DNA of 24,000 nt, taken from NCBI GenBank assembly GCA_035627375.1, contig DASPLX010000034.1:43033-67032 (forward strand), written 5' to 3'. Each line of letters begins with the position of its first letter. The first letter of the stretch is position 1. The stretch is from Paucimonas sp. (GTDB lineage Bacteria > Pseudomonadota > Gammaproteobacteria > Burkholderiales > Burkholderiaceae_D). This document shows positions 7,372 to 20,514 of this stretch, in pieces. The notes beneath the pieces were generated by a model that was given only the letters and a program-made list of their open reading frames with translations, ran no database searches and was not told the origin of the DNA. The position numbers and the translations under genes were made by a program.

Positions 7372-8604
7372 ATGAAATCTTCGACAAATATCCTGGCCGG
7401 CGCCGTGCTCGGCATGGCGGTCGGCACGAGCGCCCATGCGCTCGATCTGCGCGGCTTGCTCGATGCCCGCATCGTCGCCGCCGATGCCCGGCACGGCTGG
7501 ACCCGCGACGGCCTCGGCAAGATGCGCTACGACCAGGCTTCGGACGGCATCCGCCTGGGGCAAGCCTTCGTGCGCGCCGACGGTGAGCCGCTCGACGCGG
7601 TGACGGTATCCGTCGTGCTGAGCGCCGCGGACGACCGGCATGGAGCGCTCGATGTCAACGAGGCATGGATCGGATGGAATCCGCTCCCTGCCGGTCCCTG
7701 GAAGACGCGCGTGAAGGCGGGCGCATTCTTCCCGGCGACGAGCCTGGAGATCGATTACGACAGCGTCGGCTGGACGCCGGTCCGAACGGTTTCCAGCTCG
7801 GCGCTCAACAGCTGGATCGGCGAAGAATTGCGCACCAAGGGCATCGAATTCAACCTGTCGCGGCGCGGCCGCTTCGCCGGCTCGCCGCATGACGTCGGCT
7901 TCACCGTCGCGCTGTTCAACGGCAACGATCCGGCCGGCACGCTGATCGCCTGGCGCGGCTGGGCGATCAGCGACCGCATCAGCGGCTTGTCTGAACCGTT
8001 GCGCCTGGCGGACCTGCCGGTCTACCGGCCGGACGGCGCCATCGCGAAGCAGAGCCGGACCATCCATCTGTTCCGTGAGATCGACGGCCGGGCCGGATAT
8101 TACGCCGGCGCGCAATACGCTTATGGCGAGCGGCTCGAAGCCGCCGTCCTGCATTACGACAACCGCGGCGATCCGCTGATCGTAAAGAATGGACAATACA
8201 GCTGGACCACGCGTTTCGACCACCTGAGCCTGCGCCTGCGTCCCGGCGGCGGCTGGGAACTGGCCATGCAGGCGATGCAGGGCTCGACCGTCATGGGACG
8301 GGCCGCCGTCCGGCTCGACTACGGCGCCTGGTATCTGCTCGCCAGCCATCCGCTCGGCGGCGGAACGGCGGCGCTGCGTTACGACCGGTTCCGGGCCCGG
8401 GAAGACGATATCCTGCCGTCCGATCCCAACGGCGAAGACGGCAGCGCCTGGGCGTTGGCCTACTCCTACCGCATCAACGACGCGCTGAGCCTGGTTGCCG
8501 AAGCGCTGCTGGTGCGCAGCACCCGGCCGGCGCGCGCGCTGGTCGGCGAGAATCCGCGCCTGACGGAACGCGGCGTGACGGCGGCGTTGCGCTGGCAGTT
8601 CTGA
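7372..8604 (+). CDS. Outer-membrane beta-barrel protein, unknown family
   Basis: ATG at 7372. Signal peptide MKSSTNILAGAVLGMAVGTSAHA. Alternating amphipathic beta-strand pattern, and a C-terminal OMP signature ...GVTAALRWQF ending in Phe. Confidence 0.65.
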   Translation: MKSSTNILAGAVLGMAVGTSAHALDLRGLLDARIVAADARHGWTRDGLGKMRYDQASDGIRLGQAFVRADGEPLDAVTVSVVLSAADDRHGALDVNEAWIGWNPLPAGPWKTRVKAGAFFPATSLEIDYDSVGWTPVRTVSSSALNSWIGEELRTKGIEFNLSRRGRFAGSPHDVGFTVALFNGNDPAGTLIAWRGWAISDRISGLSEPLRLADLPVYRPDGAIAKQSRTIHLFREIDGRAGYYAGAQYAYGERLEAAVLHYDNRGDPLIVKNGQYSWTTRFDHLSLRLRPGGGWELAMQAMQGSTVMGRAAVRLDYGAWYLLASHPLGGGTAALRYDRFRAREDDILPSDPNGEDGSAWALAYSYRINDALSLVAEALLVRSTRPARALVGENPRLTERGVTAALRWQF

Positions 8605-8623: not shown

Positions 8624-9754
8624 CTACTCGGACCAGGCCTCCAGCGCGGCGTTCTCGGCGGCGGGTGCGACTTGCGCCGGCGCCGCCTCCGTGCGCGGCG
8701 GCGCGGCCGCGGCCGCATGCGACGCGCGCTGCAATTGCTTGGGCGATCTGCCGAACCAGCGCTTGCAGGCGCGATGAAACGCGCTGGGCTCGGAGAATCC
8801 GAGCTGGAAGCTCAGCTTCTTCAGCGAGATCTGTCCGCCGCTCAGATACTGCTGCGCCATCGCGCGCCGCGTGTCGTCCACGATCCGGGTGAAATTGGTG
8901 CCTTCCTCGGACAGCCTGCGCTGCAGCGTGCGCTCGCTGATCATCAGCCGCTTCGCGACTTCCTCGCGCAGCGGTTCGCCCTTGGCCAGCATGCCGGCCA
9001 GGAGGCGCTGCACGCGCGCCGAGAAACTCATGCTCGCGCGCTGCAGCAGCGCCGATTCGGCGAACATGCGCAAGGTCCAGTCGGCGGCCGCCGGCGGCGG
9101 CGTCGGGAACGAGATCCGGAGGTCGGCATCGGCGAATTCGACCGTATTGGCGGCGGCATCGAAATGCACCGGGCAGCCGAAGGCTTCCGCGATCGCCTGC
9201 GCTTGCGGCGGACGGGGATAGGCATAGGTGACCAGCAGCGGCCTCAAGCCGTCGCACGCCGCCGCCGAGCGCAGGGTGCGCAACACCATCGACCAGACGA
9301 AATCGTAGCGCTGTCTCGGCACCGGCCGGATCCCGGCCGCCAGGCGCAGCGTGACGCGCGTGCTGGCGGGAGCGCGCTGGGGCAGGTGCTCGATCGCGCT
9401 CTGCACGGTCGGCGACAGCAGCGGCGTATAGCGCACCAGGTTGTCGATCGCCGTCTTGATGTCCGGCGACAGCAGCATGATATGTCCCATCAGGCCGAGC
9501 CAGCCGAGTTGATAGGGCGACGACACGCGAAAGGCGATCAGCGGATCGCCCGAGCGCTGTGCCAGCGTCTCCCACAGATGGCTCAGCTTGTCCGACAGCG
9601 CGGCCGGATCGCTTTCGATGATCCCGGCCGCTCCGCCGGAGTCGATATCGCGGTCGAGGCCGGTCAACCGGAACAGTTCGTCGGCGTCGAAGCCGCAGGC
9701 CGCGAGGCGGGCCTTCATGCCGCGCACCAGATCGCTTGCAGAGGAATAGCTCAT
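8624..9754 (-). CDS. AraC family transcriptional regulator (N-terminal AraC-type effector domain plus C-terminal double HTH)
   Basis: 376 aa, with strong RBS CAGGAGGG. C-terminal HTH_18-type region: REEVAKRLMISERTLQRRLSEEGTNFTRIVDDTRRAMAQQYL...LKKLSFQLGFSEPSAFHRACKRWFGRSP. It ends in an extra Ala/Pro-rich tail of about 40 aa. Confidence 0.9.
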   Translation of the reverse strand: MSYSSASDLVRGMKARLAACGFDADELFRLTGLDRDIDSGGAAGIIESDPAALSDKLSHLWETLAQRSGDPLIAFRVSSPYQLGWLGLMGHIMLLSPDIKTAIDNLVRYTPLLSPTVQSAIEHLPQRAPASTRVTLRLAAGIRPVPRQRYDFVWSMVLRTLRSAAACDGLRPLLVTYAYPRPPQAQAIAEAFGCPVHFDAAANTVEFADADLRISFPTPPPAAADWTLRMFAESALLQRASMSFSARVQRLLAGMLAKGEPLREEVAKRLMISERTLQRRLSEEGTNFTRIVDDTRRAMAQQYLSGGQISLKKLSFQLGFSEPSAFHRACKRWFGRSPKQLQRASHAAAAAPPRTEAAPAQVAPAAENAALEAWSE

Positions 9755-9800: not shown

Positions 9801-10391
9801 TCACGGCGCGACGGCGCTGCGCAGCCGCATGCCGATACGCTGCTGCAGCTCTTGCAGTTTCGGATCGATGACGGGGCGCGTGTCGGCCGCGATCTTCTCG
9901 CCGAGCGACTTCTGCAATTCAGGCGCCAGGGCTTCGAACTTGCGTTTCACAGGCGATTCGAGCATCGCGATGATCTGCCGCAGTTCATCCTCGGAAAAGC
10001 GTTCCGCCAGGAGCGGCGCGACCGTCGACGGGATCAGCTTTTGCGCGCTGCCGGTCACGATCGGCGCGGAGTCTTCGAGGAATTTCTTCGCATCGGCGGC
10101 GATCTCGCGCAGCGCGGCGTCGCGCTTCTCCGGCGTGGCGCGGCCTTGCAGCATCGCGCGCGCCTGGTTGACGGCGTCGGCCACCGGTTCTTGCAGCATC
10201 GATTGCCCGAGCGTTTCCACGTGCCACAGCTTGAGCAGGCGCTGCACCAGCTCTTGCTTGGCCGGCGTGATCGGCGCCGAAGCCGGCGCCGATGCCGGCT
10301 TGGCGTCGGCCGCGGCGGCCTGCAGGTTGGCGCAGAGCAGCGCGACGGCGAGGGCGGATTTCAGAACGGCTGCGGAAAATCTGTTCGGCAT
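9801..10391 (-). CDS. Periplasmic alpha-helical protein, DUF2059-like
   Basis: This is only the last 196 codons of track ORF 9801..12014. ATG at 10391 is preceded by AGGAGA. Signal peptide MPNRFSAAVLKSALAVALLCANLQAAAA, then an Ala/Pro linker. The segment SEDELRQIIAMLESPVKRKFEALAPEL resembles the DUF2059 ExSPxGxK block (from memory). Confidence 0.7.
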   Translation of the reverse strand: MPNRFSAAVLKSALAVALLCANLQAAAADAKPASAPASAPITPAKQELVQRLLKLWHVETLGQSMLQEPVADAVNQARAMLQGRATPEKRDAALREIAADAKKFLEDSAPIVTGSAQKLIPSTVAPLLAERFSEDELRQIIAMLESPVKRKFEALAPELQKSLGEKIAADTRPVIDPKLQELQQRIGMRLRSAVAP

Positions 10392-10453
10392 GGCGGTCTC
10401 CTGTCGGTGATTCATACGATGTCGGTCCAAGGCGCTCGGCGGCGGACGCCGCC

Positions 10454-12097
10454 TCAAAAGCGCTGCGTGAAGCTCGCGCCCACGTAGCGCACGCGCAGGT
10501 CGCCGGCGACATCGAGGCCGGCGTACGGGTTGTAAATGATGTTGAAGAAGTTGCTGCAGTTGAGGTTGCAATCGGTATTGGCCGGCACGTTGAACTTGCC
10601 GCGCATGTAGCTGGCGCCGACGTTGAGGTCGCGGCCGCCGCCGAGCTTCATGTTGAAGCCGAGGCTCATGACCTTGGTGTCCGGCAGCGGCGCGATCAGG
10701 TCGATCTTGTCGGCCGGCACCGAGCTCTTGCGCGGCTCGTAGCCGGCGCGCAGCGTGATCCGGCGGCTGAGTTCCGCCTGGATGCCGAAGCCCCAATGCA
10801 CCACGTTGCGGTAGCCGCGCGGAATCTTCAGCTGCGTCGCGTCGGCAAATCCGAACATGCGCGCCACTTCCAGCAGCCGGATGCTCTGGTCGAACTTGAA
10901 GGTCAGCGTGTCCCAGGCACGCCAGTTGGTGTAGTTGGCGTCGATGTTGAGCTGCAGCCGGCGCGTCGGCTTGAATTTCACGCCGATCTGCAAGTGGGCG
11001 GGAAACGGAATGACGGCGGTCATGTTGCCGCTTTGCGTTTCCGGTATCCGGTCCGGCAAGCCGAGCGTGGCCGCGATGATCGGCCCTTGCAGGCTCGCAT
11101 AGAGTCCCTCGACGAACTTGCGCACCATCGCCTCGGTGTTGAAGGTGTAGCGGCCGCTGTAGACGGTCTTCGATCCACCCTGGTAGACGATGCCGAGCGC
11201 GAAGCGGTCCGACGGTTCCCATAGCAAGCCGAGGTTGAGCGTCGGATCGACCGGCGAGGTCATCTCCATCTGCATCGCCGCCACTTTCTTGAAGGGATTC
11301 AGCCGGCCTTCCGGGCCGCCGCTGCACAAGCCCACCGTGAGCGTGTCGATCGGATTGCCGCCGTCCTCCGGGCACCAGCCTCGCTGCGCCTTGCCGGTGA
11401 TGCCGAGCAGGGGATTGGGCATGCGCATGTCGGTGTCGATCACGAACGCCGCATGCGCGATCGGCACCGCGGCGCCGACGCGCAGCGTGTCCGAGAACTT
11501 GTAGCCGATCGCCGGCGACAGGTACACGAGCCGCTGCAGCTGCACCACCTTGCCGTCGTAGCGGCCGGGATCGTTCGGATCCTTGCTGCGGTCGACCGAG
11601 AACGCCTGCGGGATATAGGACAGCGTCGCGAACGTGAACGGCGAGCCGGGGTTGTTGTACGCCAGGCCGAGGCCGGGAATGACGACCCCGGGCAGCTTCC
11701 ACTTCAGCAAGCCGGCCACCGGCAGCAGCAGCCGCTGGCGCACCTTGCCGGTACGCGCGCCGTCGAGCGGATCGTCGGTCCAGCCGCCGATGTCGAAGCC
11801 GGGCGGTTGCGTGAACGAGGCGCCGGTGCGGATCGAGGCGCCCCAGAGGGTGAAAGTTTCCGACCTGCCTTCCATGCGCGCCAGGCCGGCCGGATTGAAG
11901 TGGATCGATTCGATGCCGGGCGGATCGGCGGTGACCGCGTTGCCGAGCGACATGGCGGTGGCACTGGTGGCGAGATTCTCGGTCAACGCGGCATGCGCGG
12001 GCAGCGGCGCGCACGGCAGCAGTCCGGCCGCCAGCAAGGCGGCCAGCCTTGGTCCGCGGAACCGTCGATGCCGGCGGCGCTGGGAACGTCGTGTCAT
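10454..12097 (-). CDS. FadL/TodX/OMPP1-family outer-membrane transport barrel (unusually long, 547 aa)
   Basis: RBS GGAGAG. Signal peptide ending PAHA|AL. The N-terminal hatch motif SATAMSLGNAVTADPPGIESIHFNPAGLA is the conserved NPAGL block of the FadL family. The C-terminus GASFTQRF ends in Phe. Two Cys pairs lie in predicted loops (GWCPEDGG...VGLCSGG; NTDCNLNCSNF). Confidence 0.85.
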   Translation of the reverse strand: MTRRSQRRRHRRFRGPRLAALLAAGLLPCAPLPAHAALTENLATSATAMSLGNAVTADPPGIESIHFNPAGLARMEGRSETFTLWGASIRTGASFTQPPGFDIGGWTDDPLDGARTGKVRQRLLLPVAGLLKWKLPGVVIPGLGLAYNNPGSPFTFATLSYIPQAFSVDRSKDPNDPGRYDGKVVQLQRLVYLSPAIGYKFSDTLRVGAAVPIAHAAFVIDTDMRMPNPLLGITGKAQRGWCPEDGGNPIDTLTVGLCSGGPEGRLNPFKKVAAMQMEMTSPVDPTLNLGLLWEPSDRFALGIVYQGGSKTVYSGRYTFNTEAMVRKFVEGLYASLQGPIIAATLGLPDRIPETQSGNMTAVIPFPAHLQIGVKFKPTRRLQLNIDANYTNWRAWDTLTFKFDQSIRLLEVARMFGFADATQLKIPRGYRNVVHWGFGIQAELSRRITLRAGYEPRKSSVPADKIDLIAPLPDTKVMSLGFNMKLGGGRDLNVGASYMRGKFNVPANTDCNLNCSNFFNIIYNPYAGLDVAGDLRVRYVGASFTQRF

Positions 12098-12110
12098 GTC
12101 ACTCTCCGGT

Positions 12111-13136
12111 CTACAGGCTCAGCGGCAAGCTCAGCCCGAGCGTGAAATTCGGCGAGTCGTTGGTGAGGCCGACGCCGACCGTGATGTTGAGCGTGGTTTT
12201 CGGCGAGATGCGGTAACCGAGGCCGAAATTGAGGATGCCGGCCGTCTGCGTCGTGGTCTTGATCGTCCTGCCGTCGCGGAAGCGCAGCTTGGAGCCGGCC
12301 GAAATCGATTCCTGCAGCGATATCGAGGTCGAGATGTCGTACGACAAGGCGTAGGCGAAACCGAGCCCGAAGCCGAAGCTCATCCCCGGCTCGACCCTGG
12401 TCAGGACGCGGCCGTTGCGGATCTGCGACAGGTGTTTCGCCGGCGCGCTATAGGTCAGGTTGATCGAGCCGAACAGCGCGACCGGATCGACGATATGGTT
12501 GAGATTCAGGCCGGCGCTCAGCGAGGCGACGCCGGAGCCGGTGGCCAGGCCCTTTTCGGCGTCGACCTTGAACGGGCTGCGTCCGGTGGGCAGGCGCAGC
12601 AGCGTGGTGGCCGTCGCCGAGGGACGGCCGCGGCGGGTTTCTAGCGGTTGCCAGCGCAGGCCGAGGCCGATGTCGCCGACCGAGTGCGAGGTTCCTTCGT
12701 ACGCCCGGTTCTGCGAATACTTGCTCACCAGCGGCAGGCTGATGCTGCCGGTCAGGTTGTTCTGGATGCCGTAGTCGACCGTCAGCGTGTTGGTGGCCGT
12801 GTGCGAACTGTCGTTCTCGATGCTGAACAGCGTGAGTTCGCCCGACGACAGGTCGGCGTTGATCCGTTCCTGACCGATGTAGGTGTAGCCGAAGTCGTAG
12901 GTTGCCTGCAGCCTGCCGCGCTTGATCAGCGAGTATTGCTTGTCGACCGCCGTCAGGGTCTGCTTGAGCAAAGTCGATTGGTCGGCGTCGCCTTCCTTCG
13001 GCGCCAGGGCGTCGCGCGCGGCGCTGGCGCTGGCGGCGGCCGCGGGAGCGGCCGGCGTCGCGGCGGGCGGCTGCTGCGCCGCGGCCGGCAGCGCGAACAG
13101 GGCGGCGATCACTCCCAGCGGGGGACGAATCTTCAT
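12111..13136 (-). CDS. Outer-membrane beta-barrel 'transporter' protein (MetA-pathway/PF13557-like, FapF-like architecture)
   Basis: Strong RBS AAGGAG. Signal peptide MKIRPPLGVIAALFALPAAA, then an Ala/Pro-rich linker (QQPPAATPAAPAAAASASAA), a short predicted helix (STLLKQTLTAVDKQYSLIKRG), then a regular amphipathic strand pattern to the C-terminus. It stops 13 nt before the FadL-like gene. Confidence 0.75.
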   Translation of the reverse strand: MKIRPPLGVIAALFALPAAAQQPPAATPAAPAAAASASAARDALAPKEGDADQSTLLKQTLTAVDKQYSLIKRGRLQATYDFGYTYIGQERINADLSSGELTLFSIENDSSHTATNTLTVDYGIQNNLTGSISLPLVSKYSQNRAYEGTSHSVGDIGLGLRWQPLETRRGRPSATATTLLRLPTGRSPFKVDAEKGLATGSGVASLSAGLNLNHIVDPVALFGSINLTYSAPAKHLSQIRNGRVLTRVEPGMSFGFGLGFAYALSYDISTSISLQESISAGSKLRFRDGRTIKTTTQTAGILNFGLGYRISPKTTLNITVGVGLTNDSPNFTLGLSLPLSL

Positions 13137-13263
13137 GAGAACTCCTTGTCGATGATGAACTAACGGTGCCGATGCAAAAGCGCCGGCGAGGAAAACCCGG
13201 TCCGGCCGCTGATCGATGCGGCCGGATTGCTTTCAAGGCGCGCGCCGGGCGTGCGCGATACGT

Positions 13264-14028
13264 TTAACGTCGGCGCAAATAACTGCCGCTGGCGCCCGAA
13301 TGGAGGGCGCGTTCCAGCAGGTAGGCATTGCCCAGCGGCGCGAGGATGGCCCGGTCTTTAACGCGGTCCATATCGAATACGCCCAGCTCCCGGTCGGAGA
13401 GGGCGAGTTGTCCGGCCGGCGGACGGTTCTTCGGCGGGTAGACGATGAACAGGGTATTCCGGTCCCACAGCTTTCCGAATTCGTCGATCGGGATCACGAT
13501 GTTGCCGGCCGATGGATCGGCGATGAACGCCAGGCCGTCGCGCACGCCGCGCAGCACGACGAAGTGCTTGAAGCCGGCATAGTCGATCGGCACGATGGCC
13601 GGATGTTCGAGCGTGAGCAAGTCCTTGACCTCGGCGCGAAAGCCCGCGCTGTCCACGTCGAGCGAAGCGACGTAGCGCTTCATGTCGAGCAGCGAAAAGC
13701 CGCGGCGTTCGATGATCTTCTGTTTCTCGCCGCGCTCGAGCATGCCTTCCATCGCCTGCTGTTCGCTGACGTCGATGCCGATGTGATGCTTGAGCAGGGT
13801 CACGAGCGCCGCCGAACCGCAGCTATAGTCGTAGGCCTGGCGCACGATGTTGCGGTATTTCAATTCGGAAAACGGTTCGATCTCGACCGATTGCGCGACC
13901 GGGCCGGCGGCGGCCGCCGCCAGCGGGAGTTCGAACTGATTCTTCGGACGATCGGCCGGCTCATGCGTGGCCCATGCGCCGGAGCCGGCGATCAGGATGG
14001 CGATCGCGCCGAGCAACATTCCCAACAT
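13264..14028 (-). CDS. Free-standing periplasmic C39-family cysteine peptidase
   Basis: RBS GGAAGGGG. N-terminal signal/anchor MLGMLLGAIAILIAGSGAWA. C39 catalytic blocks are intact: VRQAYDYSCGSAALVTLLKHH (Gln64, Cys70; Cys codon at 13819-13821), FKHFVVLRGV (His155) and FIADPSAGN (Asp171). There is no fused ABC transporter domain. Confidence 0.9.
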   Translation of the reverse strand: MLGMLLGAIAILIAGSGAWATHEPADRPKNQFELPLAAAAAGPVAQSVEIEPFSELKYRNIVRQAYDYSCGSAALVTLLKHHIGIDVSEQQAMEGMLERGEKQKIIERRGFSLLDMKRYVASLDVDSAGFRAEVKDLLTLEHPAIVPIDYAGFKHFVVLRGVRDGLAFIADPSAGNIVIPIDEFGKLWDRNTLFIVYPPKNRPPAGQLALSDRELGVFDMDRVKDRAILAPLGNAYLLERALHSGASGSYLRRR

Positions 14029-14211
14029 AGTGTCCCCTTCCTGTCGCGCCCGGCCTTCCCGCTCTTCGGCGCGATGTCTCTCGCGTTCCGATCTTGCCGG
14101 GAAGCGGCGCGGTAGCCGGTGAAGATTTCGTATCGGCGGGCCGCCTTTTCCATCGGATCATGCGGCGCCGCAAGCTTGCTCAAATGTACGGGGAGAGCGG
14201 GACGGCGCTTT

Positions 14212-14229
14212 CATCCGTTCGGATGAATA
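14212..14229. promoter_or_regulatory. Perfect 8+2+8 palindrome TTCATCCG-TT-CGGATGAA (candidate operator upstream of the C39 operon)
   Basis: Read directly from the sequence. It lies between the regulator stop (14323) and the C39 start (14028). Each arm contains GGATGA, the core of the E. coli MalT box. Confidence 0.35.
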
Positions 14230-14322
14230 AGGGTTGTGCGAGGTCAATCGCCTACGTCGCGCCGGTAAGCAGATGTAACAGAGCGAGGACGTCTTTCCCC
14301 GCAAAAATGAACAGGAAAGATT

Positions 14323-17115
14323 TCAGGAAAGAATCGCCCGCTTGCGCGCGATCGAAATCGCTTCCGTGCGGTTGTGCGCGCCGAGCTTCAGGTTGATGTT
14401 GCGCAGATGGGTCTTGACGGTCGTGATGGAGACGAACAGCTTCTCGGCGATCGCTTGATTGCCGCAACCTTGCGCCAGGAGTTTCAGTACGTCGAGTTCG
14501 CGGCCGGTCAATTCGCTTTCGCTCATCAGCGCCTGCAGGCGCGGCTCGTGCGCGGCCGCCGGCAGGTGGCGCATGAAGGGCGCATGGATGGCGGCGACGA
14601 AACGGTATAGCGCCGCATGCTCTTCGCCGGGCGGATCCTGCATGCCTTCCAGCAGGTCGCGGATCAGGGCCAGCAGCGCGGGGCCTTCATCCTTGAAGAG
14701 GCGCACGAATCCTTCCGCCTGCGCTTCCTGCAGCGTTTCGCGCATGGTGCGCAGGGCAGGATTGCGTTGGCCGGCATGGGATAGCGCGAGCGCATGCAAT
14801 ACCTTGACCCGCAGGGCATAGCGCACGCGGCCGCGCGCATGGACGTCCTGCAAATGCTCCTTGAACAGCGGCAGGGTCATGGCCGCCTGGCCGCAATGGA
14901 CTTGCAGGCGCAGATAGGAAAGCATCGGCGTTTCGAGGTCGTTCGCGATCATCTGCACGCCGTTGTATTGCCAGGCCGGCGCGGCGCCGACCAGGGCCTG
15001 CAGCGAACGCGCGGATTCGATGTCGCCGTCGAGCAGGGCGCAGCGCGCGCGTTCCAGTCGGGCGACGTCGATCACGCGCGGCAGGTTGCGCTGCATGCCG
15101 AGCTGCTCCAGGTCGAGCAGGGTTTGCAAGGCGTCGTTGCCGTTGCGTTCGGCGCGCAGGATGCGCGCGTAGATGACGTGGCTGGCGATCAGCTGGTCGG
15201 GAATGCCGGCATCCTTGACCAGCGGCAGATAGTGCGTCAGCAGCCGCTTGGCGTCGTCGAGCTGGTCGGTCTCGTAGAGCACTTCGGCCAGGTAGAGGCT
15301 GGCGAAGCCGGTATCGGCGCCGTAGCGCGGATTCGTCGACCCGGCATCGGCGCCGATCAGGGCGCGCAGGCGCGGGCCGGTGCTGCGCAGGCGCACGTGC
15401 GTGTCGTTGCCGATCAAGGCGCGCAGGCGGGCGCCGGCGGCGCGCAGCCGGCCTTGCAGGATGTCGAGCATGGCGTGTATATAGCCCGCTACCCCGACCG
15501 AAAACAATGGCCCGACCGCCGAATGTTCGCGCGTCGCCTGGTCGAGCAGGACGCGCGCTTCCTGGTAGCGGCCGATGGTGGCGTAGTAGTAGGCGCAACC
15601 GATCATCAGCATGCTGCGCAGCAGGGGTTCGCCGGCGGCGCCGCCAAGAATGTGCGGGTCTTCCCACATCGGCGCGGTTTGCTCGATGCGGTCGAGCATC
15701 ACCAGGCTGAAGGTTTTCAGCACCAGGTAGGTCGGATGCGAGATCGAGGCGGTTCGCGGCGGCACGCCGCCGGGATTGACCGCTGCCTCCAGCAGCGCCA
15801 GCGCCTCGGCGCTGCGGTTGATGTGGATCAGCGACCAGGCATGGACCGACAGCAGTTGCGGGCGGGCGGCGACGGCGCCGCGGTCGAGCGCATCGAACCA
15901 GCGCGCGAGCAGGCGCACCCTGCCTTGCAGGAACAAGGCCTGCGCGTGACGATCGAGCAGGTCGAGCGCGAGCTCGCTATCGGCGGCGGCGATCGCATGC
16001 TCGATCGCGTGCGTGGGATGTCCTTGTTCGTCATACCAGCCGGCCGCGCGCCGGTGCAGCACGATGGACAAGCCCGGATGCCGCTGTTCGAGCTGGGCGC
16101 GCAGAAAGCCGGCGAACAACGGGTGATAGGTGAACCAGACGTGCTGCTCGTCGACCGCGGTGATGAACATGTTGGAACGTTCCACTTCGCGGATCAGCGC
16201 GTCGCCGTCGTCGCGGCCGGTGACGGCGTTGCAGCTGTCGGCGCAGAACTTGTGCAGGATGCTGGTCTGCAGGATGAAGTCCTGCACATGGGGCGGCCGG
16301 TGCGACAGCACGTCTTCGGCAAGATAGGCGGACACGACCGAATTGCAGCCCGAGAAGTTGCGGATGAAGCGCTTCGGATCTTCATGGCTTTCCAGTGCCA
16401 TCGACGATAGCCATAGCGCCGCGGCCCAGCCGCCGGTGATCTCGTGGAAGCGCTCGACCTCGCCGCGCTCGAGCTTGAGCCGGCGCTTCTCGCACAGGAA
16501 TTGCCCGGTCTCGGCCAGCGAGAAGCGCAATTGCTCCGCGCCGATTTCGAGCAGTTGCTGGCGCGCGCGCAGGCGCGCCAAGCTTAGCGCCGGCTGCTCG
16601 CGCGAACCGATCACGATGCGCTGCTGCGGGCTCAGCATGTCGATCAATTGCTGGATCACCGACAGCGCCGCCGGATTGTGCAGGTGTTCGAATTCGTCGA
16701 GGATCAGGAGGAAGGGCAGCGGCGTGGCCGCGATCGCCTGCGTCAGCTCGAACCCGCTGCCGCCGTCGAGCGGGCGCAAGGCGTGCTGCCCGGCCGGATG
16801 GAGCGTCGCGAATGCCTGCGCCAGGCAGGTCATGAAGCGGTCGAGATCGTTGTCGCCGGCGTCGAGCGTGAGCCAGGCGACCGCGCTGTCGGCGATCGAT
16901 ACGTCGTACAGGTGACGCAGCAGCGTGCTCTTGCCGAATCCGGCCGGCGCTTCCACCAGGATCAGTTTCGCCGTTTCCGCATGGCGCATGCGCTCCAACA
17001 GCCGGTCGCGCGCCACGAAAGGCGCGGCCATGGCTGGCGGTTTCAGCTTCGACGGCGCCGGTCGAAGTACTGACGGTCTTTCCGGCGCGTAATTAGGCAG
17101 TGCGGACGATCGCAT
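14323..17115 (-). CDS. MalT/LAL-type large ATP-binding LuxR-family transcriptional regulator (STAND NTPase + helical sensor + LuxR HTH)
   Basis: About 930 aa. The N-terminus PSKLKPPAMAAPFVARDRLLERM parallels MalT PSKLSRP...VRERLL. Walker A is EAPAGFGKSTLL and Walker B is FLLILDEFEHL. C-terminal LuxR HTH: LTGRELDVLKLLAQGCGNQAIAEKLFVSITTVKTHLRNINLKLG. Start is ATG at 17115 (a GTG at 17118 is also possible). Confidence 0.9.
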   Translation of the reverse strand: MRSSALPNYAPERPSVLRPAPSKLKPPAMAAPFVARDRLLERMRHAETAKLILVEAPAGFGKSTLLRHLYDVSIADSAVAWLTLDAGDNDLDRFMTCLAQAFATLHPAGQHALRPLDGGSGFELTQAIAATPLPFLLILDEFEHLHNPAALSVIQQLIDMLSPQQRIVIGSREQPALSLARLRARQQLLEIGAEQLRFSLAETGQFLCEKRRLKLERGEVERFHEITGGWAAALWLSSMALESHEDPKRFIRNFSGCNSVVSAYLAEDVLSHRPPHVQDFILQTSILHKFCADSCNAVTGRDDGDALIREVERSNMFITAVDEQHVWFTYHPLFAGFLRAQLEQRHPGLSIVLHRRAAGWYDEQGHPTHAIEHAIAAADSELALDLLDRHAQALFLQGRVRLLARWFDALDRGAVAARPQLLSVHAWSLIHINRSAEALALLEAAVNPGGVPPRTASISHPTYLVLKTFSLVMLDRIEQTAPMWEDPHILGGAAGEPLLRSMLMIGCAYYYATIGRYQEARVLLDQATREHSAVGPLFSVGVAGYIHAMLDILQGRLRAAGARLRALIGNDTHVRLRSTGPRLRALIGADAGSTNPRYGADTGFASLYLAEVLYETDQLDDAKRLLTHYLPLVKDAGIPDQLIASHVIYARILRAERNGNDALQTLLDLEQLGMQRNLPRVIDVARLERARCALLDGDIESARSLQALVGAAPAWQYNGVQMIANDLETPMLSYLRLQVHCGQAAMTLPLFKEHLQDVHARGRVRYALRVKVLHALALSHAGQRNPALRTMRETLQEAQAEGFVRLFKDEGPALLALIRDLLEGMQDPPGEEHAALYRFVAAIHAPFMRHLPAAAHEPRLQALMSESELTGRELDVLKLLAQGCGNQAIAEKLFVSITTVKTHLRNINLKLGAHNRTEAISIARKRAILS
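15352..15447. repeat. Imperfect in-frame tandem duplication, 57-bp period, inside the regulator gene
   Basis: GCCGATCAGGGCGCGCAGGCGCGGGCCGGTGCTGCGCAG (15352-15390) versus GCCGATCAAGGCGCGCAGGCGGGCGCCGGCGGCGCGCAG (15409-15447). By my count 33 of 39 positions are identical. The encoded peptides are ..ARLRALIGNDTHV.. and ..PRLRALIGADAGS... Confidence 0.6.
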
Positions 17116-17291
17116 CACCGGACACGGAAATGAAAGGGAATGAGTTACCGCCCTGCTCGAGAACGGCGGCTAGTGGTTCGATATCTCCCGATTGCCTTGG
17201 CATGAATCGCAAATCGGGGTATGGCGGGCCACTAGACCACTAGGCTTCCGAGGCGGAGGTAACAGGTTACAGAGGATTGTCAAAAATGCTA

Positions 17292-17307
17292 TAGAGCGAT
17301 CGCTCTA
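17292..17307. promoter_or_regulatory. Perfect 16-bp palindrome TAGAGCGATCGCTCTA in the divergent control region
   Basis: Read directly. It lies in the AT-richer 606-bp intergenic region between the regulator gene and the secreted-protein operon. This is a candidate dimeric-regulator operator. Confidence 0.35.
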
Positions 17308-17646
17308 ATTGCCGTGCTTTTTTGGAATTCCGGCTGATTGCAGGAAAGAGAAGGCAAGCGAGGGCGTATTCGAGCGCAAGGGAGGACACTCTTCCGGTAT
17401 CCCTACTGAAGATAGGCATGGTCTTGTCTCCGTATATTCTGGCCGGTCTGGCGCCGGCTCATTATGAGGTGGCTATTATGCCGCAAAAAAATTGCCGCAC
17501 AACAGTTCCCGGGAGCGTGGATTTTTCCTTATGGAACAACAAGATGTGGAACGGAAACCGAATTCGCGCGCGTGGCTCTCGCTGCCATGCGTTTGGCTTC
17601 GGAGGTCAGCCCGCGAGGGCACGGGAATTCTGGCCACTGTCCTAAC

Positions 17647-17695
17647 ATGAAGGCTCTTAATATTGTCTCAATGTTAAGAGTTGCAGTGCCTTCAT
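17647..17695 (+). promoter_or_regulatory. Composite inverted repeat / leader hairpin about 30 nt upstream of the first secreted-protein gene
   Basis: Outer arms ATGAAGGC (17647-17654) and GCCTTCAT (17688-17695). Inner arms TCTTAA (17655-17660) and TTAAGA (17674-17679). The right outer arm reads GGATGAAGG on the minus strand, the same heptamer as the 14212 palindrome. Confidence 0.35.
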
Positions 17696-17724
17696 CCTTC
17701 CGAAATTCCTCTAGGAGACCGACT

Positions 17725-18255
17725 ATGAAATTTAGCTTGATCAAGAAAACCGCCATCGCCGCTGCGTTGTCCTCGTTCGCCCTGGGCGCGTCCGCCATGA
17801 CGACGATCGACGATGCGGACCTATCCAAGGTCAGCGGCCAGGACGGCGTGTCGATCGCCGTCGACCTGAATATCAATGTCGGTGAATTCAGGTACACCGA
17901 TACCGATACGGACGGCGGTTCGGTCAGCTTCAACAACATTCGGACGACCGGTACGATCGCCGCGACGCTGGACGTGATCAGCGGCGCGACTTTCGCGACC
18001 CTGGGTACCGGCGAAGCCTACACCGTGCTCGGCCTCGACCCGACCGCGGCCAATACGCAAGCCAACATCGCGGCCTTCTACGGCGGCGGCGACGTCGTGA
18101 AGATCGCCATCCCGGATCTGGACGTCACGGCCGGCCATACGCTGAGCCAGACCATCGACAGCATCCGGATGGGCGGCTCGACCAAGTCCTTCGGCAGCTT
18201 CGCGATGAACAACATCCGTCTCCAGGGCACGACGGCTTACATCTGGGCTCACTAA
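17725..18255 (+). CDS. Secreted subunit-like protein A (176 aa): Sec signal peptide + double-glycine-leader-like motif; candidate major subunit (DUF6160/FilA-like from memory)
   Basis: AGGAG lies 7 nt upstream of ATG 17725. Signal peptide MKFSLIKKTAIAAALSSFALGASA, then MTTIDDADLSKVSGQ|DGVSIAV. Mature part has no Cys, is Thr/Gly/Asp/Ile-rich and has repeated xNNIRxxGT blocks. The C-terminus is ...TAYIWAH. Confidence 0.85.
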   Translation: MKFSLIKKTAIAAALSSFALGASAMTTIDDADLSKVSGQDGVSIAVDLNINVGEFRYTDTDTDGGSVSFNNIRTTGTIAATLDVISGATFATLGTGEAYTVLGLDPTAANTQANIAAFYGGGDVVKIAIPDLDVTAGHTLSQTIDSIRMGGSTKSFGSFAMNNIRLQGTTAYIWAH

Positions 18256-18307
18256 GCCGGAACGGCGGCGCAATTCCCCGGGCCGCGTTCGCCGGCGTAA
18301 CACGGCA

Positions 18308-18340
18308 CCTCCCGGCAGCGGCCGGGAGGCCGTCTTTCCA
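18308..18340 (+). terminator. GC-rich hairpin after gene A (partial terminator/attenuator candidate)
   Basis: CCTCCCGGC-AGCG-GCCGGGAGG (9-bp perfect stem, 4-nt loop) followed by CCGTCTTTCC. The U-tract is weak, so read-through into genes B-D is likely. Confidence 0.5.
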
Positions 18341-18361
18341 ACGTCATTTCCCAGCGAGATC

Positions 18362-19138
18362 ATGATGCTTGCCCGCTTCTTGCCAGCCGGATGCCTGCTC
18401 GCCTTGGTATGCGCCGCTCCGGCATCGGCGCAACTGCGTCCCATGAGCGAACCCGAGCTGTCGGACATGCACGCTCAAGGCTTGATCGAATTGAGCAACA
18501 GCAGCCATGGCGGCTTCGATTTCACGCGCATCGCGTTCGGCGCGGACGTGCGATTGAATGCGAATTTCCGCAATATCCGTCTCGGCGAATATCACTACGC
18601 GACGCGCGACGGCAGCGGCGCCGACCTCGACATCCCGCTGCTGCGATTCGGCCGCACCGACGGCACGGCGGCGCAGCGCGTGGTGGAGATCACCAATCCC
18701 TATTTCGAATTCATCTATCGCAACGCGGGCAACGCGGCCCAACGAGAAATCGTCGGCATCCGCTTCGGCTTCGACGGCATCGCCGGCGACGTCGGCCTGG
18801 CGATGACGACGCTATCCGGCTCGCTGCGCATCGACGGCGGGGCGGCCGGGGTCCTCGATTCGCGCACCGATGCCGGCGGCGGCAAGCGCTGGGACGGCGC
18901 GTGCGCGGCGCCGTGCCTGAACCTGAACCAGATCGGCGGCGTGCGCGCCGGCGATCTGAGCGGTCCGAGCCGCGACTTCTGGGTCGCGGCGGTCAAGGTG
19001 CCGGTGCAATTCCAGGCGCCGTCCGGCACGACCCAGGTGCCGGATGTCGCGCAACCGGGCTTCTGGCTCAATTGGCGCGACAAGCTCGCCGCCATCAACG
19101 TCAACGGCGCGCCGCCGCCCAACGTCGCCGGAAAATGA
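18362..19138 (+). CDS. Secreted paralog B (258 aa) with degenerate GG-leader-like motif
   Basis: Signal peptide MMLARFLPAGCLLALVCAAPASA, then QLRPMSEPELSDMHAQ|GLIEL. It shares the FRNIRLG block with A, C and D. Mature part contains one Cys pair (GACAAPC). Its stop overlaps the gene C start. Confidence 0.8.
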   Translation: MMLARFLPAGCLLALVCAAPASAQLRPMSEPELSDMHAQGLIELSNSSHGGFDFTRIAFGADVRLNANFRNIRLGEYHYATRDGSGADLDIPLLRFGRTDGTAAQRVVEITNPYFEFIYRNAGNAAQREIVGIRFGFDGIAGDVGLAMTTLSGSLRIDGGAAGVLDSRTDAGGGKRWDGACAAPCLNLNQIGGVRAGDLSGPSRDFWVAAVKVPVQFQAPSGTTQVPDVAQPGFWLNWRDKLAAINVNGAPPPNVAGK

Positions 19139-20049
19139 CGATGAACGGGCCGATCCGACGCTGGCTCCGCTTTGCGGCCGCGACCTGTTGCGCGGGCATC
19201 GCAGCGGGAAGCGCCATGCCTGTCGCTCATGCGCAGGGCTTGCGCCCGCTCGACGACGCCGCGTTGTCGGCGGTGCAGGGGCGCGACGGCCTGAGCTTCG
19301 ACCTCGCGAACTTCTCGATGGCGGGCGACGCCCGCATCACCTATTACGCACCGGCGCCATCGACCGCTAGCGCCTGGGTCGGCAACTTGTATGCGGCGCG
19401 TTCCGACGATCCCGCCAACCCGTTCGGCGATCCCTATCGTCTCGACATCGTGCGGCGCGGCGGCGGCCTGGCCGATGTCGTCGAGCTCGCCTTTCCGGTC
19501 AACGCCAACGGCGCGCAGCGCTGGCAATTCGCCTACGACTGGGGCGTTGCCGCCGGCGGCATCGATGCTGAGGGCGGCAGCGTCGTATTCAAGGATGCGG
19601 TGTTCTACGGCGGCGGCATGCAATGGTCGACGCCGCGCGACGTCGAGGGCATGGCGTTCGGGCTCGCGCTGCGCCTCGATATCGGCAACCTGTTGCTGCG
19701 TCCGCGCGGACGCGGCGATATCGGCGCCGTCGATGGCGCCGCCGAGCAGATGAATATCCGCGGCGTGCGCATCGGCGCCGTCGACGGCGCCGGCAATTTC
19801 CTGGGTACGCCATGGCGCATCGCGGACGTGACGGCGCAACCCGGGATCGTCAACGCCGTACCGGACGCCAGCGGCACGCCGCGCCTGCATGTCGGCATCG
19901 ATTGGCCGGACACGGGCGCCGCCGCGCTCGGCGGACTGCAGATCGACAATCTTTCGTTCAAGAGCGATGTGACCGGCAATCTCGATCTCGGCTCGAGCCG
20001 TATCGGTTCGATGCAGATCCAGTATCTCGATATCAAATTTCGACCTTAG
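19135..20049 (+). CDS. Secreted paralog C (304 aa) with GG-leader-like motif
   Basis: ATG at 19135 overlaps the gene B stop (ATGA). This is only the last 304 codons of track ORF 18391..20049. Signal peptide ...AGSAMPVAHA, then QGLRPLDDAALSAVQGR|DGLSFDL. It contains an MNIRGVRIG block. Confidence 0.8.
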   Translation: MTMNGPIRRWLRFAAATCCAGIAAGSAMPVAHAQGLRPLDDAALSAVQGRDGLSFDLANFSMAGDARITYYAPAPSTASAWVGNLYAARSDDPANPFGDPYRLDIVRRGGGLADVVELAFPVNANGAQRWQFAYDWGVAAGGIDAEGGSVVFKDAVFYGGGMQWSTPRDVEGMAFGLALRLDIGNLLLRPRGRGDIGAVDGAAEQMNIRGVRIGAVDGAGNFLGTPWRIADVTAQPGIVNAVPDASGTPRLHVGIDWPDTGAAALGGLQIDNLSFKSDVTGNLDLGSSRIGSMQIQYLDIKFRP

Positions 20050-20052
20050 GCC

Positions 20053-20514
20053 ATGTTGAACCTGTTCATCCTCTTGCTATTGTGGTGCTGCTGCAGCCTG
20101 GCGGCGCAGGGAGCGCGTTCGCTGAACGACGAAGAGCTCGCGCAAATCAGCGGCGGCGACGGCGTCAGCATGGCGGTGCACCTGGCGCTGAACGATCCGG
20201 CCTCGTCCGGCGGCGGGAGCGAGAACCGGATCGCGATCGGTACCGCGGTCGATGGGCAGACCAATTACATCGTCGTCCGGAATCTGCGCGGCACGATCGA
20301 TATGTTCGCCGTCAATCTGAGCGTGCGGAAGAAGCCGGACGGCGGCGACTATCTTGCGCTCGGCCTGCCAGGCTATATCCGCTTCGGCGGCTTCGGCTTC
20401 GATTCCCTGAGCGTGCAGGCCGATCCTTCGGGGCCGGTCACGCAGAGCCTCGGACGGATCGATATCAACGGCACGCTCTCGATGCAAGGACAACTGCGCC
20501 TGTGGGCGCACTGA
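20053..20514 (+). CDS. Secreted paralog D (153 aa) with canonical double-glycine motif
   Basis: Starts 3 nt after the gene C stop. Hydrophobic N-terminus MLNLFILLLLWCCCSLAAQG, then ARSLNDEELAQISGG|DGVSMAV (motif codons 20122-20157). VRNLRGT block. C-terminus ...QLRLWAH, like protein A. Confidence 0.8.
   Translation: MLNLFILLLLWCCCSLAAQGARSLNDEELAQISGGDGVSMAVHLALNDPASSGGGSENRIAIGTAVDGQTNYIVVRNLRGTIDMFAVNLSVRKKPDGGDYLALGLPGYIRFGGFGFDSLSVQADPSGPVTQSLGRIDINGTLSMQGQLRLWAH

Follow-up and report, generated by a model that had tools for sequence, protein, structure and literature searches.

A 24,000-nucleotide stretch of DNA from Paucimonas sp. (positions 43,033 to 67,032 of the forward strand of contig DASPLX010000034.1, assembly GCA_035627375.1), which is termed the window throughout, contains at its positions 9801-20514 two divergent gene groups that probably specify a fibre of the Fil type and the machinery for its secretion. 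According to the reading preferred here, to which we assign a probability of about 0.7, the fibre subunits cross the inner membrane by the Sec pathway, lose a double-glycine-type (GG-type) leader located behind their signal peptide to a periplasmic C39 peptidase, and are then exported through an outer-membrane barrel. Judged from its predicted proteins, the locus is a betaproteobacterial (Burkholderiales) variant, in a soil betaproteobacterium, of the fil 'putative pilus' system of Acinetobacter. It is probable, as a part of this best explanation, that the cluster is related to the Fap secretion machinery of Pseudomonas and exports folded-subunit pilins rather than amyloid. The three steps had been proposed in an earlier inspection of the nucleotide sequence alone (the sequence-only reading), and they fit all the tests that were run, which are the invariance of the catalytic residues, the stand-alone nature of the peptidase, the leader pattern, the TIGR01847 match of one leader and the starting residue of the solved filament 9XFV. 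Which barrel exports the subunits, and whether polymerisation occurs 'through' it as was proposed, we infer.

Leaders of the secreted proteins A-D

The four secreted proteins encoded on the plus strand, A, B, C and D, all carry a GG-like motif directly behind the signal peptide, as had been claimed. The motif reads IDDADLSKVSGQ/DG in A, MSEPELSDMHAQ/GL in B, LDDAALSAVQGR/DG in C and LNDEELAQISGG/DG in D, where the slash marks the predicted cut. With the preceding residues, the leaders read ASA/MTTIDDADLSKVSGQ/DGVS in A, ASA/QLRPMSEPELSDMHAQ/GLIE in B, AHA/QGLRPLDDAALSAVQGR/DGLS in C and ...ARSLNDEELAQISGG/DGVS in D. Each of them consists of a short acidic segment, spaced hydrophobic residues and a terminal pair of small residues. 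In protein A, the Sec signal peptide occupies residues 1-24 and the cut is predicted after Gly38-Gln39. A loose form of the leader pattern is present in 155 of 158 DUF6160-like open reading frames (ORFs) of the related loci described below, as compared with 208 of 5159 other ORFs, indicating that the leader occurs far beyond chance. A hydrophobic segment lies at most 30 residues ahead of it in 143 of the 155 cases.

When about 155 aligned homologues are counted from the predicted cut, position −12 is L, M or I (153/154), position −10 is D or E (153/154), position −8 is E, A or D, position −7 is L or M (154/154), position −4 is V or I (136/156), position −2 is G or A (155/156) and position −1 is Q or R (137/156), followed by D at +1 (105/124) and G at +2 (145/156). 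The pair at −2/−1 is GQ in 80, GR in 34, AQ in 17, GA in 11 and GG in 6 homologues. The double-glycine leaders of the ComC/ComA and bacteriocin literature have hydrophobic residues at −4, −7 and −12 and Gly at −2. The leaders of class II bacteriocins, ComC and colicin V, which belong to peptidase-containing ABC transporter (PCAT) or ABC-transporter maturation and secretion (AMS) systems, share these features, and acidic residues at −8 to −10, with the leaders of the window. In contrast, the leaders of the window are internal, behind a Sec signal peptide, and mostly end with Gln or Arg; the cargo is a fibre subunit of 150-300 residues, and the peptidase is a free periplasmic protein, whereas the C39 domain of a PCAT is a cytoplasmic domain of the ABC transporter.

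The leader of D, aligned as LNDEELAQISGG, passes the TIGR01847 model (bacteriocin_sig) with 18.8 bits against a cut-off of 15.7, and matches class IIb bacteriocin leaders more weakly. The leaders of A, B and C do not match TIGR01847, because their ends are Gly-Gln, Ala-Gln and Gly-Arg, yet they align column by column with that of D. The Pfam model DUF6160 itself hardly extends beyond the signal, the leader and the first hairpin. A double-glycine leader being the hallmark of class II bacteriocins, A-D could be bacteriocin-like toxins or signals that are secreted and matured by the C39 peptidase, instead of fibre subunits. However, this possibility is rejected as highly improbable in view of the size and the Sec signals of the proteins, the lack of accompanying genes for immunity or an ABC exporter, and the filament structure of a homologue.

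Mature end of protein A and the filament 9XFV

The profile of the protein A family matches one entry of the Protein Data Bank (PDB), chain A of 9XFV, with an E value of 1e-41. This entry is a 'bacteria pilus (like)' with 25 chains of 173 residues (PDB). The accessible text of the accompanying paper (PMC12956863; PNAS 2026) describes it as 'pilus-like-alpha', a helical filament with a rise of 11.70 Å and a twist of 283.86 degrees, determined by cryo-electron microscopy at 2.9-3.4 Å from uncultured material in the drip water of a stalagmite. The map itself yielded the sequence, which was attributed to UniProt A0A257CJ09. The filament serves in that text for validation of a method of handedness determination, and its gene cluster, leader and biogenesis are not discussed there.

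Residue 1 of 9XFV is the D of DGVSIAGDLNINIG. It aligns with D40 of protein A, which is located just after Gly38-Gln39. Mature A, which starts with DGVSIAV and ends with YIWAH, shows 41% identity to the visible part of 9XFV, and the two proteins share the mature N-terminus DGVSIA and the C-terminus WAH, the C-termini being WMWAH in 9XFV and RLWAH in D. 9XFV is known as a structure only. The gene closest to 9XFV among the related loci (80% identity over 148 visible residues) is found in locus L022, and its precursor reads ...ASASAMSSIDDAALSQISGQ/DGVSIAGD.... This locus has the same gene set as the window, with A, an AraC-type regulator, B, C, D, the peptidase, FilC, FilD and the DUF2059-like protein. 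The chain of 9XFV thus begins where the leader ends. This result strongly supports the removal of the leader, but does not prove it, because a disordered extension would also be invisible.

The AlphaFold2 (AF2) model of A (pLDDT 81.6) contains a long beta-hairpin, and its only match in the PDB is again 9XFV (E value of 4e-11, TM 0.55); no known pilin fold is found for it in this search. By analogy with 9XFV, polymerisation of A into a helical filament is supported.

The C39 peptidase

In an alignment of 52 diverse stand-alone C39 homologues with identities of 28-63%, Gln64, Cys70, His155 and Asp171 of the peptidase are invariant. A hydrophobic N-terminal segment ahead of the catalytic motif is present in 81 of 82 homologues, which are stand-alone proteins; none is fused to a transporter. 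Between the catalytic motif and the C-terminus, members of the family have only 183-253 residues. The peptidase also matches the C39 domains of PCATs (PDB 6MPZ, E value of 9e-8), and no ABC fusion, adaptor or TolC-type partner is found with it or in the cluster. Its best match among the NCBIfam models is FilB (220 bits, cut-off 475) and the second is FapD (125.5 bits, cut-off 330). By these sequence comparisons, it is a homologue of FilB and FapD and the predicted leader peptidase of the locus. FapD is periplasmic, and its C38A mutant abolishes secretion of FapC (PMC5557850). Among the peptidase representatives collected, no true FapD orthologue is found that would permit direct comparison with a Fap cargo.

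Relation to the Fil and Fap systems

The 341-aa barrel is best matched by FilC (293 bits, cut-off 630) and next by FapF (94 bits, cut-off 700), and the 547-aa barrel by FilD (421 bits, cut-off 970) and next by PorV/PorQ (33 bits). FilA is the sole NCBIfam match of protein A, with 35 bits against a narrow cut-off of 220. The Fil models (NF050077-NF050080 and NF033645) are 'exception' models with narrow cut-offs, and the scores below them suggest that the system of the window is a homologue, not an orthologue, of the Acinetobacter system. Homologues from Alcanivoracaceae are intermediate (FilB 301, FilC 358 and FilD 775 bits), and one FilA from this family exceeds the NCBIfam cut-off with 235.5 bits against 220. 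None of the proteins of the window matches FilE or FilF, and the DUF2059-like gene occupies the fifth position.

The fil operon is made up of six genes and has been called an 'uncharacterised putative pilus assembly' locus (PMC4751259), two products of which, FilC and FilF, increase in biofilms (PMC8792954). A passage of PMC11784438 that cites Hori 2011 gives FilA as a surface fibre protein of Acinetobacter strain Tol 5, and purified preparations from Acinetobacter have yielded thin, curved filaments 'of unknown function' that mass spectrometry identifies as FilA (PMC10980823, PMC11539960). In the literature searched, no account of the biogenesis of Fil fibres is found. The sequence-only reading had called the system undescribed; this does not hold, since NCBIfam contains models of FilA to FilE, FilA filaments have been purified and a homologous filament is in the PDB. 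The two systems that it named for comparison, Fap and Acinetobacter filA-F, are the right ones, being the second and best NCBIfam matches. The core shared with the Acinetobacter system, which is called 'Fil pilus' or 'type III pilus' in proteomic papers, consists of a DUF6160 subunit with leader, a stand-alone C39 peptidase and FapF-like and FadL-like barrels. The order of the peptidase, FapF-like and FadL-like genes is identical and contiguous (14028 to 10454 on the minus strand of the window), and the leader of a gammaproteobacterial FilA that passes the NCBIfam cut-off (AMSAVTGQ/DG) is of the same type as those of the window. The window differs from the fil operon in that it has four subunit genes instead of one, a DUF2059-like protein in place of FilE/FilF, and AraC- and MalT-type regulators in addition; subunit A has 176 aa, whereas the FilA profile has 279 positions.

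Fap (FapA-F), which Rouse et al. 2017 termed a 'hybrid secretion system' (PMC5557850), resembles the locus in that its cargo is exported by Sec, its C39 peptidase FapD works in the periplasm and is needed for secretion, and its barrel FapF contains a PTG motif; the homology of the window's peptidase and barrel to these two proteins is clear, but the scores lie below the cut-offs and are lower than those for Fil. Pairs of fapD and fapF are known from other phyla (PMC6173800). However, the amyloid repeat protein that forms the Fap cargo is rich in Q/N and has no canonical recognition sequence for C39 (PMC5557850), whereas the Fil-type cargo has an obvious leader. The FadL-like second barrel is absent from Fap and separates Fil-type from Fap-type systems. 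As read from the sequence, the FilC-like barrel has a short Ala/Pro linker and a helix where FapF has a long coiled coil. A Fap-like functional amyloid with divergent subunits would likewise account for the kinship of the peptidase with FapD and of the barrel with FapF. This explanation is rejected and has very little probability, because A-D and their neighbours match neither the subunit families FapB/FapC nor FapA or FapE, and 9XFV is a helical polymer of alpha-helix-containing subunits with a rise of 11.7 Å that is described as a pilus.

Outer-membrane barrels and the periplasmic helical protein

The 341-aa barrel consists of a signal peptide, an Ala/Pro-rich linker, a short helix and a barrel with a PTG motif. 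Its residues 150-338 match the solved structure of FapF (PDB 5O67) with an E value of 1e-22, the PTG motif being aligned. FapF is the channel for unfolded Fap subunits, and the FilC-like barrel is predicted to be the export channel because it is homologous to FapF. The 547-aa barrel is distantly matched by 3DWO and TbuX in the PDB, and FilD proteins are about 100 residues longer than a typical FadL. The FadL-like barrel is a required partner, always encoded next to the FapF-like barrel; we guess that it is a surface anchor or an assembly platform.

The 196-aa protein had been described as DUF2059-like. The gene is present, but the DUF2059 match is sub-threshold (23.1 against 23.6 bits), and the PDB matches 3OAO and 2X3O have an E value of 0.19. 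A gene for this protein follows FilD in none of the gammaproteobacterial loci and in 24 of 24 informative Burkholderiales loci. From this conservation, the protein is possibly a periplasmic helper, perhaps a chaperone.

Conservation of the two gene groups

With the alignment of 52 homologues as a seed, 80 loci were collected from species-representative genomes, and their ORFs were classified by phmmer, hmmsearch and jackhmmer. The denominators given are loci whose contig is long enough to show the gene. FilC adjoins the C39 gene in all of 76 loci, FilD follows FilC in 71 of 72, and the order C39-FilC-FilD is constant in Burkholderiales, Pseudomonas and marine Gammaproteobacteria. In Burkholderiales (25 loci), FilC is present in 25/25 and FilD in 24/24, the fifth gene is DUF2059-like in 24/24, and DUF6160 genes are found within 10 kb in 23/23, always in at least four copies. 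The order A-B-C-D is kept in these loci, A is often duplicated, and B adjoins A wherever the upstream flank is long enough. In Pseudomonas (18 loci), FilC is present in 18/18, FilD in 17/17, a FilE-like fifth gene in 15/17 and a single DUF6160 gene within 10 kb in 16/16. In marine Gammaproteobacteria (37 loci), the corresponding values are 33/33, 30/31, 19/30 and 7/20. Conservation of the two units together, the lack of which would have refuted the sequence-only reading, is thus upheld.

The FilE-like genes are confined to gammaproteobacterial loci, where they hold the position that the DUF2059-like gene holds in Burkholderiales. The protein encoded after FilD (L030:13466-14620, L058:13564-14622, L056:13399-14562) has an N-terminal YTWVD(E/D)QGR motif. 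Its C-terminal part is weakly MalM-like in the two proteins scanned (L030, L058), and a related gene of L073 shows a faint FilE match. Trios without a DUF6160 gene within 10 kb occur in Marinobacter, Oleiphilus and Bermanella (L037, L040, L041, L044, L056-L058 and others). At several of the marine loci of this kind, the gene upstream appears, on reading, to encode the periplasmic chaperone PpiD. The cargo of these trios is encoded at another place of the genome or differs in kind. Many of these genera are hydrocarbon degraders.

Points against leader removal and export

Several facts weigh against the proposed pathway. All four Fil matches are below their cut-offs, and FilE and FilF are absent. 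The leader residues that are missing from 9XFV could be disordered rather than removed. Known C39 peptidases accept Gly, Ala or Ser at −1, whereas this position is mostly Gln or Arg here. Cleavage of the leader by the C39 peptidase has so far been demonstrated for no member of the family. The families of both barrels are best known for the uptake of hydrophobic compounds. Of the 20 marine gammaproteobacterial trios with full flanks, 13 lack a DUF6160 gene within 10 kb, so that the trio may serve another cargo or function. For Fap, the target of the peptidase is undetermined and is perhaps the transporter itself (PMC5557850, PMC6173800), the Fap proteins being without canonical C39 sequences (PMC5557850, PMC6173800, PMC12459412).

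The last point and the unusual residue at −1 would be explained if the leader is a targeting or chaperoning signal that is not cut by the C39 peptidase. The peptidase would then bind the leader and deliver the subunits, as some C39-like domains act as chaperones only (PMC5557850), or would cut a periplasmic linker of the transporter to gate the channel, in the manner of the FapF linker cleavage considered for Fap (PMC5557850, PMC6173800), and another protease, or none, would trim the subunit. This arrangement is unlikely, because none of the 52 homologues departs from the catalytic Gln, Cys, His and Asp, the subunit of the solved filament has its first residue at the conserved boundary G-(Q/R)/D-G, and the N-terminal linker of FilC, as read from its sequence, contains no leader-like motif.

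The families of the barrels and the trios without nearby cargo bear on a different explanation, in which the trio is mainly a device for uptake of hydrophobic compounds or for the envelope, with FadL-type and COG4313/FapF-type barrels, and the DUF6160 fibre is accessory, serving for example adhesion to hydrophobic substrates. Many of the matches come from Alcanivorax, Marinobacter, Oleiphilus, Thalassolituus, Macondimonas and P. benzenivorans, which are known as hydrocarbon degraders, and many of these lack a nearby DUF6160 gene. However, uptake channels have no known need of a dedicated peptidase, and C39 genes are unreported beside COG4313 uptake pores (PMC6173800). The barrels of the window match Toluene_X and Phenol_MetA_deg (Table 1), as do FadL/TodX/TbuX and COG4313 channels, but the genes around them encode a peptidase, subunits for secretion and regulators, and no catabolic genes flank the cluster in the window. 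Since the cargo is in addition always present in Burkholderiales and Pseudomonas, this explanation is quite improbable, and export of leader-bearing fibre subunits remains the preferred reading.

Subunits A-D and their relatives

The four proteins had been described as paralogues. This is correct for A and D, the families of which are homologous throughout (hhalign, 98.8% over 132 columns), but not for B and C, which share with A and D only the N-terminal 35-70 columns or so, containing the signal, the leader and the first strand, in profile-profile comparison (B against the A family, 95.6% over the N-terminal 61 columns only). C passes the DUF6160 cut-off of 27 bits with its N-terminus only, D is below it with 18 bits, and B has no Pfam match. 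Residues D51 and G52 of C are invariant among 61 homologues. The AF2 model of C (pLDDT 86.4) has a large all-beta body, for which no fold match is found in the PDB. Subunits of the A, D and Pseudomonas types end with (W/F)-(A/G/S)-His, and 97 of the 158 homologues are His-terminal. A is likely the major subunit, and B, C and D are presumed to be minor subunits, exported and processed by means of the same module as A.

The public NCBI call for protein C has 277 aa and starts 27 codons downstream (19135-19215 region), with loss of the signal peptide; the longer start is favoured because the homologues have 296-307 aa. B, C and D are tightly packed, B overlapping C by 4 nt and C being followed by D after 3 nt, while A and B are separated by 106 nt. 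In this gap, a G+C-rich hairpin followed by UUU lies at 18302-18333 (plus strand; fold z-score −2.5), which is not called by a simple terminator scan. Its role may be that of an attenuator or stabiliser by which the proportion of major and minor subunits is set.

A fifth DUF6160 paralogue, absent from the window, is encoded at L007:14031-14783, L021:11527-12291, L005:14222-15001 and at least 14 other Oxalobacteraceae loci. It consists of an N-terminal cytoplasmic domain of the MshEN type, which binds cyclic di-GMP (c-di-GMP), a membrane segment, a leader (for example LSDEELGEIMAQ/G) and a DUF6160-like C-terminus; the MshEN-type domain scores 59 bits with NF053729 against a cut-off of 38. Drift of the jackhmmer profile was considered as a source of the c-di-GMP-binding matches and rejected, the sequences being genuine fusions with leader and DUF6160-like C-terminus. 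Most loci with the fusion lack MalT, whereas the window has MalT and lacks the fusion. The fusion suggests control of fibre initiation by c-di-GMP across the inner membrane.

Regulators and the control region

The locus had been placed under a MalT-type regulator. Such a gene is present, but it is weak as a conserved control, being found with the system in 2 of 23 Burkholderiales loci, as against 22 of 23 for an AraC-type gene. MalT-type genes accompany the system in 16 of 16 Pseudomonas loci, with two genes each, and in 5 of 20 marine loci. The AraC-type regulator of the window, which matches QhpR with 194 bits, below the cut-off, adjoins the DUF2059-like gene on its downstream side and lies outside the interval first described. 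Judged by gene content, the AraC-type protein is the conserved regulator of Burkholderiales loci, and MalT is a lineage-specific addition between the two units of the window. The public gene call starts the MalT-type regulator at 17031 and gives 902 aa, as compared with the 931-aa ORF. In ten Massilia-type loci (L007:8980-9831 and nine others), a conserved gene for a 283-aa protein is located between the AraC-type regulator and the peptidase gene; no homologue of it is present in the window.

The presumed 5' leader of A, in the region between the MalT-type regulator and gene A, contains an imperfect 49-nt hairpin at 17647-17695 (plus strand; fold z-score −2.3), which is 30-78 nt upstream of the start codon. 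Besides this hairpin, only short and probably chance repeat pairs are found in the region. Scans of it for promoter and terminator consensus sequences give no convincing site and none that is sigma-70-like, with counts not above the shuffled expectation.

Organisation of the locus

The features of the locus are listed in Table 1. All nine genes at 9801-20514 are verified by ORF check and domain scans, with the coordinates and domains that the sequence-only reading had given them. The searches with Pfam and NCBIfam models that it had called for return DUF6160, Fil, Fap, Phenol_MetA_deg, Toluene_X and Peptidase_C39 matches. It had treated the minus-strand genes as one unit; the gene set is confirmed, but the regulator and peptidase genes are 294 bp apart, so that the unit may consist of two transcripts.

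Table 1. Positions of the genes, predicted leaders and control region of the fibre locus in the window
Feature	Position	Strand	Length and evidence
AraC-family regulator (QhpR-like)	8624-9754	minus	376 aa; Arabinose_bd and HTH_18
Weakly DUF2059-like periplasmic helical protein	9801-10391	minus	196 aa
FadL/TodX-family outer-membrane barrel (FilD homologue)	10454-12097	minus	547 aa; Toluene_X 137 bits
FapF-like outer-membrane barrel (FilC homologue)	12111-13136	minus	341 aa; Phenol_MetA_deg 34.7 bits
C39 peptidase	13264-14028	minus	254 aa; Peptidase_C39 67.7 bits; N-terminal hydrophobic signal-like segment
MalT-type STAND/LuxR regulator	14323-17118	minus	931-aa ORF; TPR_MalT, GerE, MalT PRK04841 367 bits
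Intergenic region between regulator and gene A	17119-17724		lower G+C; hairpin at 17647-17695
Protein A, likely major fibre subunit	17725-18255	plus	176 aa; DUF6160 82 bits
Predicted leader of A	17797-17841	plus	residues 25-39; column statistics of about 155 homologues and chain start of 9XFV
Protein B, presumed minor subunit	18362-19138	plus	258 aa; N-terminal profile match to the A family
Predicted leader of B	18431-18478	plus	residues 24-39; Ala-Gln/Gly type; sequence reading, B orthologues
Protein C, presumed minor subunit	19135-20049	plus	304 aa; DUF6160 27.5 bits
Predicted leader of C	19234-19284	plus	residues 34-50; Gly-Arg/Asp type
Protein D, short full-length paralogue of A	20053-20514	plus	153 aa; hhalign with the A family
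Predicted leader of D	20107-20157	plus	about residues 19-35; canonical Gly-Gly; TIGR01847

The other genes of the window encode a phosphate-binding-type protein, MatE, a solute-binding protein, an unassigned signal-peptide protein, a receiver domain and a porin. As had been claimed, none of them encodes an ABC/PCAT exporter, HlyD, TolC, an usher or a component of type II secretion or type IV pili (T2SS/T4P). A 409-aa protein encoded at 7375-8604 (plus strand) has a signal peptide and a C-terminus, ...ALRWQF, resembling an outer-membrane beta-signal; it has neither a Pfam or NCBIfam match nor a homologue in the related loci. The G+C content of the window is about 0.65-0.69, except near 17-18 kb, where it is 0.56. 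No Rfam family is matched anywhere in the window.

Proposed pathway and its meaning

In the pathway proposed from these sequence comparisons, A-D would cross the inner membrane by Sec. The periplasmic C39 peptidase would then recognise the GG-type leader of 15-17 residues behind the signal peptide, a step that is strongly supported, and would cut after (Gly/Ala)-(Gln/Arg/Gly), giving mature proteins that start with Asp-Gly-(Val/Ile/Leu)-Ser in A, C and D and with Gly-Leu in B. By analogy with Fap, the processed subunits, probably unfolded, would pass the outer membrane via the FapF-like barrel. A would polymerise into a helical filament, of which B and C may be minor tip, adaptor or base subunits. 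The DUF2059-like protein may assist in the periplasm, and the conservation of the regulators suggests that the AraC-type protein controls expression, with the MalT-type protein as an extra, lineage-specific input.

Within the literature searched, the connection of leader and periplasmic peptidase with the mature end of the filament, as predicted from sequence, appears to be new, and so do the reach of the family, the layout of its loci, the variant set of genes and the fusion to a c-di-GMP sensor in relatives. A more far-reaching proposal, which we hold only tentatively and at slightly less than even odds, is that these loci represent a widespread and mechanistically undescribed pilus pathway. 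A GG leader behind a Sec signal would serve in it as a periplasmic propeptide, the removal of which by a free C39 peptidase licenses export through the FapF-like and FadL-like barrels and provides the first substrate rule of the FapD class, the target of which in Fap has been unknown since 2017, and in many Oxalobacteraceae the MshEN fusion would let c-di-GMP gate initiation.

Acinetobacter FilF has been tried as a vaccine antigen, and this, together with the increase of FilC and FilF in biofilms, gives the route of biogenesis some applied relevance. The pilus pathways usually listed for Gram-negative bacteria are chaperone-usher, type IV, curli, type V and conjugative, and none of them accommodates the Fil/DUF6160 fibres, which are known from Acinetobacter and now also as a filament abundant in natural water. 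The locus of the window and its 80 relatives offer a testable scheme of biogenesis with an exact predicted cleavage site. They also suggest what the periplasmic peptidases of the FapD class recognise.

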